From: Candidatus Limnocylindrales bacterium
GTDB lineage: Bacteria > Chloroflexota > Dormibacteria > CF-121
DNA: 64,000 nucleotides
Assembly: GCA_035632635.1 (NCBI GenBank)
Contig: DASQGL010000074.1
Span: 4,601 to 68,600 of the forward strand
Direction of reading: 5' to 3'
Position numbers and translations under genes: made by a program. The notes beneath the pieces were generated by a model. The model made no database searches, was not told the origin of the DNA, and worked only from the letters and a program-made list of their open reading frames with translations. Positions within the stretch are counted from its first letter, which is position 1; the number at the start of each line of letters is the position of its first letter. Below are positions 3,413 through 13,635 of this stretch, piece after piece.

Positions 3413-4788
3413 AGATCCTGATCAAGGGCGGCACCGTGGTCACCGCCAGCGAGACGGCCAGGGCGGACGTCCTCGTGGTGGACGAGAAGGTCGCCTCCAT
3501 CGGCTCCGGGCTCGACGGCAAGGCCGACCGGGTGATCGACGCCACCGGGCGGCTCGTGATGCCGGGCGGCATCGACGCGCATACCCACATGGAGCTGCCC
3601 TTCGGCGGTACCTTCGCCTCGGACGACTTCGCCACGGGCACGGCGGCGGCGGCCTGGGGCGGCACCACCACGATCGTGGACTTCGCGGTGCAGAGCTACG
3701 GCGAAAGCCTGGGCAAAGGTCTCGAAACCTGGATGAAGAAGGCGGCCGGCAAGGCGCACATCGACTACGGGTTCCACATGATCGTACGCGAGATCAACGA
3801 CGGAATCCTCAAGGAGATGGATGCGCTGGTCAGGCAAGGCGTGCCCTCCTTCAAGCTCTTCATGGCCTATCCCGGTGTCTTCATGCTCGACGACGCGTCC
3901 ATCTTCAAGGCCATGAGCCGGACGGCCCAAAACGGCGGGCTGATCATGATGCACGCCGAGAACGGCGGGGCGATCGACGTGCTCGTCCACCGCTACCTGG
4001 CGGAGAAGAAGACCGCCCCCATCAACCATGGGCTGACGCGGCCATCCTCGATGGAGGGAGAAGCCACCCATCGGGCGATCGCGCTGGCGCGGCTGGCGGA
4101 CGTGGCCGTGTATATCGTCCACCTCAGCTCGAAGGAGGCGCTCGATGCGGTGCGGGAGGCGCGCGACGACGGGGCGCCCGCGTATGCCGAAACCTGCCCC
4201 CAGTACCTCTACCTGAGCCTCGACGACCTCGGCCGCCCGGGCTTCGAAGGTGCGAAGTACGTCTGCTCCCCGCCGCTCCGCCCCCGACTCCACCAGGAAG
4301 AGCTCTGGAAGGGACTCTTGAAAGACGACCTGCAGATCGTCTCCACCGACCACTGCCCGTTCCACTACCGGAAGCAGAAGACGCTCGGCAGAGGCGACTT
4401 CTCCAAGATCCCGAACGGTCTCCCGGGGGTCGAGGATCGTTTCACCTTGATCTACGACGGCGGCGTGGCTCGAGGGCGGATCAGCCCGAACCGGTTCGTG
4501 GAACTGGTCTCCACCGCTCCGGCCCGCATGTTCGGGCTCTACCCCAAAAAGGGTACGATCGCGCCCGGCTCCGATGCCGACATCGTCGTCTTCAACCCCA
4601 GGGTGGAGCGGATGCTGTCGTCGAAGACGCACCATATGAACGTCGACTACTCGGCCTATGAGGGCCGCAAGGTCAAGGGAGTCCCCGAGGTGGTGATGCA
4701 GCGAGGCAAGGTGCTGGTCGAGAATGGGAAGTTCCACGGCCGCAGGGGGGACGGCCAGTTCCTGAAGCGGAACAGGTCCCAACCGTGA
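3409..4788 (+). CDS. dihydropyrimidinase / D-hydantoinase
   Basis: ATG 3409 overlaps the upstream TGA (ATGA). The protein is 460 aa. The N-terminus MKILIKGGTVV...GGIDAHTHMELPF is classic for cyclic amidohydrolases. Confidence 0.9.
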   Translation: MKILIKGGTVVTASETARADVLVVDEKVASIGSGLDGKADRVIDATGRLVMPGGIDAHTHMELPFGGTFASDDFATGTAAAAWGGTTTIVDFAVQSYGESLGKGLETWMKKAAGKAHIDYGFHMIVREINDGILKEMDALVRQGVPSFKLFMAYPGVFMLDDASIFKAMSRTAQNGGLIMMHAENGGAIDVLVHRYLAEKKTAPINHGLTRPSSMEGEATHRAIALARLADVAVYIVHLSSKEALDAVREARDDGAPAYAETCPQYLYLSLDDLGRPGFEGAKYVCSPPLRPRLHQEELWKGLLKDDLQIVSTDHCPFHYRKQKTLGRGDFSKIPNGLPGVEDRFTLIYDGGVARGRISPNRFVELVSTAPARMFGLYPKKGTIAPGSDADIVVFNPRVERMLSSKTHHMNVDYSAYEGRKVKGVPEVVMQRGKVLVENGKFHGRRGDGQFLKRNRSQP

Positions 4789-9852: not shown

Positions 9853-10554
9853 ATGACGCTCCTCGCGCGCGTCGCGCTCGAGATGCTGATCCTGGTGACC
9901 GCCCCCATCGTCGTCCTCGCGATCGGCCGTCACGGCTGGCATCGGAGCCACCTCGCCGGACATCCGGTGTTTGCGATCGTCGCGTTCAATGCCGCGCTGA
10001 TGGCGCTGATGGCGCCGCCGATCGTCCGCCTGACCGCCTCATCGACGCTCCTGCTCGGGCTGAGCCAGCTGGTGTTCCTGCTCGCCGCGATGGCGTTCTG
10101 GTGGCCGGTCTTGCGGCCGACGACGCGGGGCGGCCTGAGCCCGATGACGAAGATCGGGTATCTGTTCGTCGCCGGCGTTCCGCCGACCATCCCCGGTGTC
10201 GTGCTCGGGTTTTCGCGCGGGCTGCTCTACCCCGGGGTCCAGGCGAGCGGGGCCTTCGGACTGACGCCGCTCGAGGACCAGCAGCTCGCCGGGTTGCTGC
10301 TCTTCGCCACGGCGAAAGCGGTGCTCGTGACGCTGACCCTTTTCACGCTCTGGCGCCTGCTGGCTCAAGACGGGGAGCCGCCCGACGACTCATGGGATGA
10401 CGACACGATCGCGGCCGGGCCACCCGATACGCCCGCCTGGTTCCGCCGCCTCGACCAGGACCTGCCGCAGGAGCAGGCGGGAGCGAGGCCGATCGGCGCA
10501 CCCGGCGCGGATCGAGCGTGGGTGGGCGCCGGTCAGACGAGCGGCCAGGGGTAG
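9853..10554 (+). CDS. polytopic membrane protein (possibly cytochrome oxidase assembly CtaG-like; function tentative)
   Basis: It is about 234 aa with 5-6 predicted TM helices and a W/P-rich segment FWWPVLRP. The start lies 4 nt after the PLD stop. Confidence 0.5.
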   Translation: MTLLARVALEMLILVTAPIVVLAIGRHGWHRSHLAGHPVFAIVAFNAALMALMAPPIVRLTASSTLLLGLSQLVFLLAAMAFWWPVLRPTTRGGLSPMTKIGYLFVAGVPPTIPGVVLGFSRGLLYPGVQASGAFGLTPLEDQQLAGLLLFATAKAVLVTLTLFTLWRLLAQDGEPPDDSWDDDTIAAGPPDTPAWFRRLDQDLPQEQAGARPIGAPGADRAWVGAGQTSGQG

Positions 10555-11327
10555 GCCCAGCGCGAGCTCGGCTCCGGGTAACGGCCATCGCCCGCCACCC
10601 GTCGGGCCCGTCCCGCAAGGGCTCGGACCTCGGCGGGCGCGAGCAGCCGGGTGAGCGGCCTTGCCCAGGGGGCCTCCTGCTCGAGGTCCCGGGCCAGCCG
10701 GGCAGCGTCCTCGCGCAGCCGGGGCGGGATCTCTTCACGCGCGAACTCCCAGATCACCGTGCGAAGCTTGGGAAGCGGGTGGAACGTCAGCCCGTTGTCG
10801 ACGCCCCAGATATGGCCGTCCCCGTCGAGCAGGCAGTGCCCGCTCTTGCGGTCGGCATTGTTCACGATGCAGTCGAAAGCCGCCATCACCCGAAACGCGT
10901 CCGCGTGCGCCGCCAGCAGCGTGAAGTAGTGTTCCTGCAGATCGGCGCGGACGAACAGCTGGAGGGATCCGGGGCCGAGCGGCCCGTCGCCTCGGTAGAC
11001 GGTGGGTGGCACGATCTCCCAGCCCAGCGCGCGGTCGACCAGGTAGGCCGCGACCTCCCGCTTGCCCAGGGTGCCCGAGGGAAAGTCGCCGAGCGGGATC
11101 TCGCCGCGCATCGGTTTGTAGATTGCCAGCGTTTCCCGGTCGCCGTCCGGCGCGCAGACCTGGGCGAGATAGGTGTAGTTGGAACAGTCCGGCATCAGCC
11201 CTTTGACCGTGATCGCCCCGCGCCGCAGCAGCCGCAGCGCCGGCTGCGCATCCTCGACCGGGGTCACGCGTGGTGCCCGTTCAGCCGAGGGCAGATGCCT
11301 CCGTTGTGATCGCTCGGACCGCCGCAC
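10533..11327 (-). CDS. SCO1664-family protein (PI3/4-kinase-like, TIGR03843-like)
   Basis: It is 264 aa and matches the conserved actinobacterial/chloroflexal SCO1664 family. It lies immediately downstream of a DUF3090 gene, its usual partner. The start is uncertain because the long ORF overlaps the DUF3090 3' end by 63 nt. Confidence 0.7.
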   Translation of the reverse strand: MRRSERSQRRHLPSAERAPRVTPVEDAQPALRLLRRGAITVKGLMPDCSNYTYLAQVCAPDGDRETLAIYKPMRGEIPLGDFPSGTLGKREVAAYLVDRALGWEIVPPTVYRGDGPLGPGSLQLFVRADLQEHYFTLLAAHADAFRVMAAFDCIVNNADRKSGHCLLDGDGHIWGVDNGLTFHPLPKLRTVIWEFAREEIPPRLREDAARLARDLEQEAPWARPLTRLLAPAEVRALAGRARRVAGDGRYPEPSSRWAYPWPLV

Positions 11328-11761
11328 ATGGGACAGGGCGGTCTGCCGGCTGCCACCACGGCGATCGCGTGCTGCGCCAGGGCCTGCATCTGGCCGGCCT
11401 CGGCCAGGAACCTGCCGGTGGCCGGCTCGTCCCCCTCGGCCGTCAGCTCGACGAGGGTGACCTCGAAGAGGCGGTCGGCCTCGTCATAGGCCAGGGTCAT
11501 GGAGCCGATCCGCCAGGCCTCGTGAAGGGGCTCCTCCAGGGCGAGGTCGCCGATCAGCGCGCCCTCCGGCACCGACACGGTGGAGAGCAGCTGTTGCAGC
11601 CGATCGGCGAGCAGCTGGAGCTGCTGCTTCTCCATCGCCAGGCTGACGAGCTGCGTGCCCGCCCGCACCTGCAGGAAGAAGCTGCGCTTGCCCGGCGTGC
11701 CCACCGCGCCGGCCGTGACCCGGGTGACCCGCTCGAACTCGAAGCTCTGGGATGGCATCAC
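11264..11761 (-). CDS. DUF3090 family protein (TIGR03847-like) with C-terminal zinc ribbon
   Basis: The N-terminus FEFERVTRVTAGAVGTPGKRSFFLQVR and the C-terminal CPMCGGPSDHNGGICPRLNGH are characteristic of DUF3090. Confidence 0.75.
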   Translation of the reverse strand: MMPSQSFEFERVTRVTAGAVGTPGKRSFFLQVRAGTQLVSLAMEKQQLQLLADRLQQLLSTVSVPEGALIGDLALEEPLHEAWRIGSMTLAYDEADRLFEVTLVELTAEGDEPATGRFLAEAGQMQALAQHAIAVVAAGRPPCPMCGGPSDHNGGICPRLNGHHA

Positions 11762-11960
11762 CCCATTCTCCCCCGAAAAAAGTGCCCGCCGCTCGGGGGA
11801 GAGCGGCGGGCCGACGGGGGAGGGGGCGGAGGGGATCTCCGCTCCCTCCAGTTTGCGCAGACCGCGTCCGGCGGCGCCATCGGGCCAGCACCTGATAGCC
11901 CCCTAACGGCGCCCGACCTGCGTCACCCGATCGTGCCGGATCGCCTGCCTAGAATGAGTT

Positions 11961-12983
11961 GTGAGCTCGGTCCTGGATCCCCGTCGGTGGCATCGCGCCC
12001 TCACGACGTTTCAGAAAGTGGCGATCGCGAACAGCGCGATCATCATCGTGGGGGCGGTCGGCGGGCCCCTGATCGTCCTGAACGTCTCCGGTCAACGCCT
12101 CCCCTACCTCCTCCTCTTCCTGGCCGCCGGACTGCTCGCGATCCTGCTCGTGAACTTCGTGATCCTGCGGCTGGCGTTCCGGCCGCTGCGCGAGCTGGAG
12201 TCGACGATGACCCGGGTCCAACCGGGCCTGCAGGAGCAGCGTGCGCCGGACAACTTCGACGATCCGGACGTCCGGCGGATGGCCCAGGTCTTCAATTCCA
12301 TGCTGGACCGGCTCGAGCACGAGCGGCATGACGCGGCCCAGCGGGTGCTGCAGGCGCAGGAACGAGAGCGCCAGCGCGTCGCGCGGGAGCTCCACGATCA
12401 GACCGGCCAGGCGCTCACCCACGAGATCATCAGCCTGGATCTGCTCCGCGAGCGGACGACCGACCCCAAGGCGCGGCAGCAGCTCGAGGCGGTCAAGCGC
12501 ACGCTCGAGGAGACGCTGGAGGAGGTGCACCGCATGGCGCAGGACCTGCGGCCCTCCGTGCTCGACGACCTCGGGCTGGTTCCGGCGCTGCGCACCCTCG
12601 CCCGGCAGCGGAGCGGCCCGCGGGTCCGCCTGCAGACCGATGGCGTCCGCGATCGCTTCCCGGCCCCGATCGAGACCGCTCTCTACCGGATCGCCCAGGA
12701 GGCGGTGACGAACGCGAACAAGTACGCCCGGGCGTCCACGATCGAGATCGACCTCCGCTGCCGGAACGGCGGCCGCGTCGAACTCCGGGTTCGCGACGAT
12801 GGCATCGGATTCGACCCGGCGACGATCCCGGATCACCAGGCGCCGGGCCGGGCCGGACTGGGCCTGTTCGGCATGCGCGAGCGGGCCGCCCTCCTGCACG
12901 GCAGCGTCGAGGTGCGTTCCGCGCCGAACCGGGGGACGGAGGTGGTGGCCGAGCTTCCCCTGAGCGAGGTCGATGGTTACTGA
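11961..12983 (+). CDS. sensor histidine kinase (HisKA_3/NarL-type partner)
   Basis: It has two N-terminal TM segments, an H-box ELHDQTGQAL, and a HATPase_c region DDGIGFD...GLGLFGMRER. Confidence 0.8.
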   Translation: MSSVLDPRRWHRALTTFQKVAIANSAIIIVGAVGGPLIVLNVSGQRLPYLLLFLAAGLLAILLVNFVILRLAFRPLRELESTMTRVQPGLQEQRAPDNFDDPDVRRMAQVFNSMLDRLEHERHDAAQRVLQAQERERQRVARELHDQTGQALTHEIISLDLLRERTTDPKARQQLEAVKRTLEETLEEVHRMAQDLRPSVLDDLGLVPALRTLARQRSGPRVRLQTDGVRDRFPAPIETALYRIAQEAVTNANKYARASTIEIDLRCRNGGRVELRVRDDGIGFDPATIPDHQAPGRAGLGLFGMRERAALLHGSVEVRSAPNRGTEVVAELPLSEVDGY

Positions 12984-13635
12984 GCGGCGTCCCATCCGCG
13001 TCATGCTCGTCGAGGATCACAACCTCGTCCGGGCAGGCATTCGCGCGGTCATCGATGGGCAGAGCGACATCCAGGTGATCGCGGAGGCGACCGATGGGCG
13101 CGAGGCGGTTCACCTCGCCCGCCAGCGCTGCCCGGATGTCGCCGTGGTCGACGTCGCGATGCCCGGGATGTCCGGGATCGAGGCAACCCGGGAGATCCGC
13201 CGCCTGTGCCCGCAGGCGCAGGTCCTGATCCTCACGGCTCACGACAACGAGGAATATTTCTTCCAGACTCTCAAGGCGGGCGCCGTCGGCTACGTCTTGA
13301 AGAAGGCGGCCGCCAGCGACCTGATCGCCGCGATCGAGGCCGCCAGCCGCGGGGAGCCGTACCTGTACCCGTCCGTGGCGCGCCTGCTCGTCTCCGATTA
13401 CCTGCAGCGCGCGCCCGGGCGCGATACCTACGAGCCGCTCAGCGACCGCGAGCGGGAGGTGCTGCGGCTGGTCGCCGAGGGTCGGACGAACCGCCAGATC
13501 GCGGACACGCTGTTCCTGAGCATCAAGACGGTGCAGACCCACCGGGATCACATCATGAAGAAGCTCCGCATGCACGATCGCACCGAGCTCGTCAAGTACG
13601 CCATCCGCAAGGGGCTGATCGAAGCCGACGGATGA
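12973..13635 (+). CDS. LuxR/NarL-family response regulator
   Basis: It has a REC domain (VMLVEDH...D...) and a C-terminal LuxR HTH (LSDREREVLRLVAEGRTNRQIA). The start overlaps the kinase stop. Confidence 0.85.
   Translation: MVTERRPIRVMLVEDHNLVRAGIRAVIDGQSDIQVIAEATDGREAVHLARQRCPDVAVVDVAMPGMSGIEATREIRRLCPQAQVLILTAHDNEEYFFQTLKAGAVGYVLKKAAASDLIAAIEAASRGEPYLYPSVARLLVSDYLQRAPGRDTYEPLSDREREVLRLVAEGRTNRQIADTLFLSIKTVQTHRDHIMKKLRMHDRTELVKYAIRKGLIEADG

Follow-up and report, generated by a model that had tools for sequence, protein, structure and literature searches.

What do two overlapping genes for a kinase-like protein of the SCO1664 family (TIGR03843) and a small protein of the DUF3090 family (TIGR03847) do together, and what can be learned from a soil lineage in which they stand without their usual phosphatase partner? 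The pair in question lies in a 64,000-nucleotide stretch of DNA (positions 4,601 to 68,600 of contig DASQGL010000074.1; hereafter the window) from a metagenome-assembled genome (MAG) of Candidatus Limnocylindrales (Chloroflexota), in which both proteins are already named, as "SCO1664 family protein" and "DUF3090 family protein". The best reading of the pair and of its three-gene relatives, which we put forward tentatively, is a phosphorylation module centered on the DUF3090 protein. The evidence for this reading comes from the arrangement of the genes across phyla, the predicted folds of both proteins, and a natural fusion of DUF3090 to the phosphatase.

Both minus-strand open reading frames (ORFs; 10533-11761) were found where the original prediction, made from the DNA sequence alone, had placed them, and their composition is of the coding type (GC3 0.86 and 0.92, GC2 about 0.5). 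Its family assignments, for which it had named a profile check, held as well. The 244-aa protein scores 249.3 bits against TIGR03843 (E 3.7e-74; cut-off 172.4), and the 164-aa protein scores 146.6 bits against TIGR03847 (cut-off 117.25) and 137.5 bits against Pfam DUF3090 (cut-off 27). The two genes do overlap, as had been claimed, but by 4 nt (GTGA) and not by 64 nt. The larger figure came from the longest ORF, whereas the kinase-like gene starts at GTG 11267: DUF3090 ends ...CAC GCG TGA, and the kinase-like gene opens GTG ACC CCG. The identical two genes, 4-nt overlap included, were called independently in a second assembly of the locus, and the pair is 100% identical to database proteins (244 aa and 164 aa) of a Ca. 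Limnocylindrales MAG. A GTGA overlap is an arrangement typical of translational coupling, and the pair, judged from its junction, is probably a translationally coupled two-gene operon.

The families were followed through 80 loci from reference genomes, which were fetched with the kinase alignment and are labeled Chloroflexota, Dormibacterota, Actinomycetota, and Methylomirabilota/Rokubacteria; the placement of DUF3090 and of the phosphatase was scored by profile searches of unfiltered six-frame ORFs. The two families had been described as co-occurring in Actinobacteria and Chloroflexi, which is correct for both phyla and too narrow, as they are also present in genomes labeled Dormibacterota and Methylomirabilota. 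In 80 of 81 loci including the window (79 of 80 without it), the gene directly upstream of the kinase-like gene is a same-strand DUF3090 gene. Among 79 loci, 24 have the 4-nt overlap, and in about 22 others the two genes are separated by 1-9 nt. Unbiased clustering of the neighboring genes gave a single dominant family, the representative of which is a histidine phosphatase that passes TIGR03848 (222.8 bits; cut-off 203.85). With the profile from this cluster, 59 of the 65 more distant loci were seen to have the phosphatase gene immediately before DUF3090, and such a phosphatase is thus indeed the usual third partner of the pair. The copy of the module in Mycobacterium tuberculosis is presumably Rv2135c-Rv2134c-Rv2133c.

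This third partner is absent here. With filters off and E<=10, no TIGR03848-type phosphatase was matched in the six-frame translation of the whole 64-kb window, nor within 10 kb on either side in any of the 15 closest relatives (65-77% identity). No RHG[EQ][TS] motif occurs in a coding frame of the window, the sole match being out of frame inside a CtaG-like gene. Upstream of 11761, where the original prediction had seen only an artifact, the long plus-strand ORF at 11270-12331 failed a codon-composition test, and a divergent two-component system stands there instead of an adjoining phosphatase. A protein database search with the phosphatase of the nearest lineage returned no match named Limnocylindria, and the two closest phosphatases with inspected context belong to intact three-gene operons in a different Dormibacteria lineage. 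Since the phosphatase is found in none of 16 loci (the window and its 15 syntenic relatives), the two-gene form is a trait of the clade and not an accident of the contig. Loss of the phosphatase in this clade is the simplest reading of the 64-kb window and of the relatives' loci.

Candidates for a universal fourth partner were all rejected. CysS/MshC and BacA/UppP each occur in 2 of 80 loci, an inositol monophosphatase (IMPase) in 1 of 80, and a DAG-kinase family gene in 8 of 80, from two phyla; PLD is confined to the window's clade, and UDG, Ogt, and FrhB-like genes to Actinomycetota. Two loci deserve a mention of their own. On a Dehalococcoidia chromosome (OZ240224.1; L048, 9968-10717), the only locus of the 81 in which an SCO1664-type kinase has neither DUF3090 nor phosphatase adjoining, an inositol-monophosphatase-like gene lies convergent to the kinase, 83 nt downstream of it. 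In Thermoflexales (L058, 6687-8159; L066, 6620-8071), a cysteinyl-tRNA-synthetase (CysRS)-type gene lies about 1.2 kb from the pair, an echo of the linkage to MshC, a CysRS paralogue, in actinomycetes; this neighbor, present in 2 of 80 loci, may be a coincidence.

The model of the DUF3090 protein is confident (predicted local distance difference test [pLDDT] 85.7, predicted template modeling score [pTM] 0.77) and contains two repeats of a β-sheet plus helix (residues 6-60 and 80-136) and, after them, a flexible tail rich in Cys. Residues ~6-136 are accordingly modeled as a PUR/Whirly-like double ββββα domain, a likeness that is structural only. No profile of PurA, Whirly, or related Pfam families matched any of 41 DUF3090 members, even at E<=10, and a DUF3090 profile found nothing among the sequences of the Protein Data Bank (PDB). 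The name "zinc-ribbon protein" in the original prediction therefore suits the small zinc knuckle at the C-terminus, where weak zinc-ribbon and zinc-hook Pfam matches were obtained, and not the bulk of the protein.

Conservation in the family falls on G20, G23, R25, F27, Q30, E43, K44, P77, G138, R139, C142, C145, C156, and N160, and the family motifs GxPGxRxF, EK, and GRPxCxxC...C..N are all present in the window protein. Position 39, which adjoins the invariant E43-K44, is Ser or Thr in 95% of 121 sequences. Within the tail, 90 sequences carry His154, and 27 others carry Gly or Ser at 154 together with His at 151, the two states being nearly mutually exclusive. This swap supports a Cys3-His zinc site. 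All 27 sequences of the His151 type belong to the phosphatase-less clade, which is thereby marked as a structural variant.

The DUF3090 family is acidic throughout, with a median isoelectric point (pI) of 4.8 and a net charge of about -10; the charge is +3 in repeat 1 and -7 in repeat 2. Long insertions of Asp and Glu occur in some members. Such acidity makes plain nucleic-acid binding less likely, and a role in binding proteins or presenting a ligand more likely. When 1.84 billion representative proteins (50%-identity clusters) were searched with a profile, 2,824 DUF3090 representatives were found at E<=1e-3. At one locus (L045, 571-1293), DUF3090 is 240 aa long, with an insertion of about 70 residues between the repeats that is extremely rich in Asp, Glu, and Gly. 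Several more representatives (about 236 aa, matched in two stretches) resemble it, and from these sequences the linker between the repeats appears to be a hot spot for acidic expansions.

The AlphaFold2 model of the 244-aa protein (pTM 0.80) gave its best Foldseek matches with human PI4KII-alpha and -beta (E 2.5e-5, probability 1.0, 18-23% identity). These matches bear out the kinase-like fold that had been proposed and place the protein, as modeled, in the structural cluster of PI4KII/Fam20/HipA atypical kinases. This cluster holds lipid, sugar, and protein kinases, and the fold is therefore silent on the class of substrate; the likeness to PI3/4-kinases does not in itself favor a lipid or a small molecule. 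K51, E71, D139, R140, H144, and D157 are at least 95% conserved across 81 sequences from four phyla. The catalytic loop and D157-N-G line up with DRHxGN and DFG of PI4KIII-alpha in a weak profile match (E 0.18), the loop Asn of PI4-kinases being replaced by an invariant His144. Conservation extends to a basic KLRTVIW segment and to a PWP motif at the C-terminus, where the tail reads ...SRWAYPWPL in the window's clade; identity across phyla is about 50%. The score against Pfam PI3_PI4_kinase (PF00454) is 22.7 bits (E 1.1e-4), below the gathering threshold of 27.1, and many homologues carry a precomputed PF00454 match. A profile search of PDB sequences found no solved structure for the family, and the protein has no predicted membrane segment. 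With a kinase fold, an ATP-binding lysine, a catalytic loop (Asn to His), and a DxG metal motif all in place, the 244-aa protein is, as far as model and sequence can tell, very probably an active phosphotransferase.

The role of DUF3090 is illuminated by a 404-aa fusion, one among the best 150 of the 2,824 representatives, in which a TIGR03848-type phosphatase (196.7 bits, just below the cut-off of 203.85) is joined to DUF3090 (177 bits). The fusion was found in two variants from independent sources (P0391 and P0512), which differ by 26 substitutions without gaps (94% identity). P0391 is encoded in two contigs (L087, 6001-7215; L088, 145-1359), and in both the kinase-like gene comes next with a 4-nt overlap. 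The two independent variants, and the kinase gene that follows P0391, argue for a maintained fusion and against a sequencing artifact. The charges of the two partners are also complementary, with a median pI of 10.2 for the phosphatase versus 4.8 for DUF3090. Collectively, the gene order phosphatase-DUF3090-kinase, the coupling of DUF3090 to the kinase, the complementary charges, and the fusion suggest that DUF3090 is central to the module, and we infer that it is the hub.

A mechanism built on this hub would run as follows. The kinase and DUF3090 would form a complex, in which the kinase moves phosphate onto DUF3090 or onto something that DUF3090 holds; Ser/Thr39 would be the best candidate acceptor on DUF3090 itself. 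In most lineages, the very basic phosphatase would take the phosphate off again, giving a reversible switch with its genes in the order known from rsbU-rsbV-rsbW partner switching, where a phosphatase is followed by a small acidic substrate and a kinase. The window's clade has presumably lost the phosphatase and has a remodeled zinc site; there, the mark would stay unreversed or be reversed by an unrelated enzyme. A precedent for protein substrates exists in the fold cluster, most bacterial members of which (HipA, CtkA, CotH) are protein kinases.

Several observations weigh against this mechanism. First, outside the metal site no Ser, Thr, Tyr, or His of DUF3090 is invariant, and Ser/Thr39 sits in a β-strand of the model, where its role could be purely structural. 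Second, lipid kinases are among the nearest sequence and structure relatives of the kinase, and a housekeeping role in metabolism could also account for the cross-phylum identity of about 50% and for SCO1664 being a signature protein of Actinobacteria (PMC4255298). Third, Rv2135c behaves as a weak generic acid phosphatase and was assayed on small molecules, not on protein substrates (PMC3866925). Fourth, a whole clade lacks the phosphatase, which indicates that reversibility is not essential to the function of the pair.

Some of these points feed the main rival of the DUF3090-centered module, a lipid or small-molecule kinase, which we consider possible though rather unlikely. In such a system, the kinase would phosphorylate a hydroxyl group of a metabolite or membrane lipid, for instance a polyprenol or an inositol-containing lipid or headgroup; DUF3090 would be a subunit that regulates or targets the kinase, and the histidine phosphatase would reverse the reaction. 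PI3_PI4_kinase is the closest sequence family, both by the score of 22.7 bits here and by the precomputed matches on homologues, and the invariant aromatic C-terminal tail of the kinase recalls the membrane-binding C-terminal tails of PI3K and PI4K. The neighborhood offers BacA/UppP in Actinomycetota, DAG-kinase-family genes in 8 loci of two phyla, and PLD-family genes in the window's clade; however, none of the lipid-related neighbors is kept across phyla, as the counts given above for BacA, CysS/MshC, and the DAG-kinase family show, and the window holds no CDP-alcohol phosphatidyltransferase motif. In the actinobacterial loci examined, copies of the module lie between UppP and the mycothiol ligase MshC, and SCO1664 has been linked in actinomycetes to mshC, a gene for the inositol-containing mycothiol (PMC4255298). 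Rv2135c has been reported in the membrane fraction and hydrolyzes small phosphate esters weakly (PMC3866925). The kinase itself is without a predicted membrane segment. The fold cluster is equally near to the Fam20 and HipA protein kinases. Moreover, a lipid or metabolite substrate would leave unexplained both the strict coupling of an acidic PUR-like zinc protein to the kinase and its fusion to the phosphatase.

A bolder version of the lipid kinase, and an improbable one in our estimate, takes the SCO1664 family as a true bacterial counterpart of the eukaryotic type II PI4-kinases: its substrate would be a lipid or headgroup that contains inositol, DUF3090 would be the subunit that targets or regulates it, and the histidine phosphatase would be the opposing enzyme. 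It draws on PI4-kinases as the best relatives, the intact catalytic residues, the aromatic tail, the linkage to inositol/mycothiol and lipid-phosphate genes in actinomycetes, and the membrane-fraction phosphatase. If true, free-living Actinomycetota, Chloroflexota, and their relatives would possess an endogenous phosphoinositide-type kinase/phosphatase cycle, and the PI4KII lineage might have a bacterial root.

Still less probable is a module directed at nucleic acids, in which DUF3090 would bind single-stranded DNA or RNA and offer the two enzymes an end or a 2'-OH for end healing or reversible RNA phosphorylation. The PUR/Whirly-like fold suggests such a role, and the DUF3090 segment KRSFFLQVR resembles KRFYLDVK of the PUR repeat; yet PurA and Whirly give no signal at the sequence level, the uniform acidity of DUF3090 and the long Asp/Glu insertions of many members speak against it, and SsgA and CdiI use the same fold for binding proteins. 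DNA-repair genes (UDG family, Ogt) are neighbors of the module in 10-12 loci of Actinomycetota, but they are confined to this one phylum and may reflect shared ancestry. An RNA kinase with a protein-kinase fold, the archaeal ArkI (7vnx), provides a precedent and gave a weak Foldseek match.

Finally, a HipA-like toxin-antitoxin or defense pair, with the kinase as growth-arresting toxin and the small upstream protein as antitoxin, is suggested by two small overlapping genes with the smaller one upstream and can be set aside as highly improbable: there is no PADLOC match, no helix-turn-helix or other DNA-binding antitoxin, and no mobile-element context, the genes are single-copy and stably syntenic with housekeeping genes in 15 relatives, the kinase is too well conserved across phyla and too firmly established as an actinobacterial signature, and the usual partner is a phosphatase, not a repressor.

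The features of the locus are collected in Table 1, which includes an RNA element upstream of DUF3090.

Table 1. Features of the gene pair and its upstream region, in window coordinates
Feature	Position	Strand	Details
SCO1664/TIGR03843 atypical kinase-like gene	10533..11267	-	244 aa, GTG start at 11267
Catalytic loop D139-R-K-S-G-H144 and metal-binding D157-N-G codons	10797..10853	-	Assigned by conservation and PI4KIII-alpha alignment
ATP-binding lysine K51 codon	11115-11117	-	Assigned by conservation
GTGA start/stop overlap	11264..11267	-	Kinase GTG over DUF3090 TGA; read from sequence
DUF3090/TIGR03847 gene	11264..11758	-	164 aa, ATG start at 11758
Zinc-knuckle tail codons, residues 138-162 (GRPPCPMCGGPSDHNGGICPRLNGH)	11273..11347	-	Invariant columns C142, C145, C156; His151 as clade-specific fourth ligand
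Shine-Dalgarno-like GGGGGAG	11768..11774	-	9 nt before DUF3090 ATG; read from sequence
C-rich RNA element	11768..11854	-	CTGGGTACAGAT (CTGG...) box, C-rich CCCTCCCCCTC tract, hairpin, U-run; from covariation and covariance model
G+C hairpin of RNA element	11784-11811	-	11-bp stem, 10 G-C pairs, C-rich (CCCC) loop, terminator-like

The terminator-like hairpin is on the strand of DUF3090, some 25 nt before the start of that gene, and is followed by a U-run; there is no co-directional upstream gene for it to terminate. In 12 sequences, 99.2% of the cells of the stem are paired and 4 of 10 pairs are changed on both sides. The observed covariation score was reached by none of 500 shuffles, and slid controls pair at about 40%. 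A covariance model gave 14 matches in 1.34 Mb, all of them in the phosphatase-less clade and upstream of DUF3090, one per locus, and two of the 14 are in loci outside the set from which the model was built. Rfam gave only sub-threshold small RNA (sRNA) matches in the upstream region (sX13, 26 bits versus 50), which leaves the element outside the known Rfam families.

In the predicted fold of the window sequence, the C-tract pairs with the Shine-Dalgarno region of DUF3090 (z-score -4.4). The distance from the element to the start of the divergent histidine kinase is constant, at about 105-112 nt, and in two loci (L002, L003) a gene on the opposite strand stands between the element and DUF3090; for both reasons, the element may be a separate small RNA. 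No sigma-70-type promoter was found at the locus. The element would be a small RNA in its own right, about 75 nt long, or else a leader that attenuates the operon, and its membership in the module is uncertain.

An intergenic stretch of about 200 nt upstream of 11761 separates the pair from the divergent two-component system, which consists of a HAMP/HisKA_3 histidine kinase and a LuxR-type response regulator (11961-13635, plus strand), with equivalents in L002-L015, and is syntenic in most of the phosphatase-less clade. This system may regulate the pair or the intervening RNA element. It is followed by genes for a luciferase-like monooxygenase and a class II fumarase/aspartase-family lyase. 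Downstream, and convergent to the pair, lie a gene for a CtaG-like membrane protein and then PLD-family, LOG-family, and class-III aminotransferase genes. This synteny, from the CtaG-like, PLD, LOG, and aminotransferase genes to the two-component system and the fumarase/aspartase-type lyase, is common to the 15 closest relatives; the neighbors are functionally unrelated to the pair.

The original prediction had stated that no function is known for these families, and no work on the function of DUF3090, the SCO1664 family, or TIGR03848 was found in the searchable literature. The only biochemical work is that on Rv2135c as a generic acid phosphatase (PMC3866925). Incidental mentions come from screens: Rv2134c in transposon sequencing (Tn-seq) with rifampicin, and MSMEG_4192, the putative DUF3090 orthologue, in Tn-seq with dibucaine and in a ClpC1 interactome.

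The set of kinase, DUF3090, and phosphatase, with DUF3090 in at least four phyla, is thus among the more widely conserved bacterial modules of no known function. The locus itself is unsurprising, as both genes are already named in public annotation and the families are known. New here are a two-gene architecture that holds across a clade and comes with a relocated zinc ligand, an assigned fold for each of the two proteins, and the natural fusion that points to a DUF3090 hub. The soil lineage has kept the pair under strong constraint after the presumed loss of the phosphatase, which suggests that the core function resides in the pair and that the phosphatase is accessory. These results yield testable hypotheses: a competent PI4KII/Fam20-like kinase, an acidic PUR-like partner with a Cys3-His site, DUF3090 as the hub, and Ser/Thr39 as candidate phospho-acceptor.

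Compared to the known TIGR03848/TIGR03847/TIGR03843 module, the window is alike in the family thresholds passed, the order of DUF3090 and then kinase, the tight coupling, and the conserved residues. It differs in three respects. First, the phosphatase of the three-gene module is lacking in the window and its 15 closest relatives. Second, the fourth zinc ligand is His151 in the window protein, in contrast to His154 in the module. Third, the flanks are a CtaG-like gene, PLD, and a HisKA_3/LuxR two-component system, as opposed to UppP and MshC.

Compared to PI4KII-alpha and -beta, the window kinase is much smaller (244 aa) and without the eukaryotic insertions. Its PF00454 score stays below the gathering threshold, its loop Asn is replaced by the invariant His144, and it has an obligate small partner. 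Fam20, HipA, CtkA, and CotH share the fold cluster with it and no detectable sequence similarity; they have other partners, and the settings in which they act, namely a secretion signal, a toxin-antitoxin context, or a spore-coat context, are lacking for the window kinase.

DUF3090, for its part, has the ββββα repeats of the PUR domain (Pur-alpha) and of the Whirly-like fold (Whirly, MRP1/2, SsgA). Compared to these proteins, however, it shows only 10% identity and no profile match, is acidic and not basic, and carries an additional Cys3-His zinc knuckle.

The closest parallel in logic is with the RsbU-RsbV-RsbW and SpoIIE-SpoIIAA-SpoIIAB systems, which have the same order of phosphatase, small acidic protein, and kinase. 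This is an analogy of function only, as the folds all differ (PP2C versus histidine phosphatase, STAS versus PUR-like, and GHKL versus PI4KII-like) and no sigma factor is linked to the module. The parallel extends to gene fusion, since partner-switching modules also occur in fused form, for example Rv1364c, and so resemble the natural fusion of the phosphatase to DUF3090.

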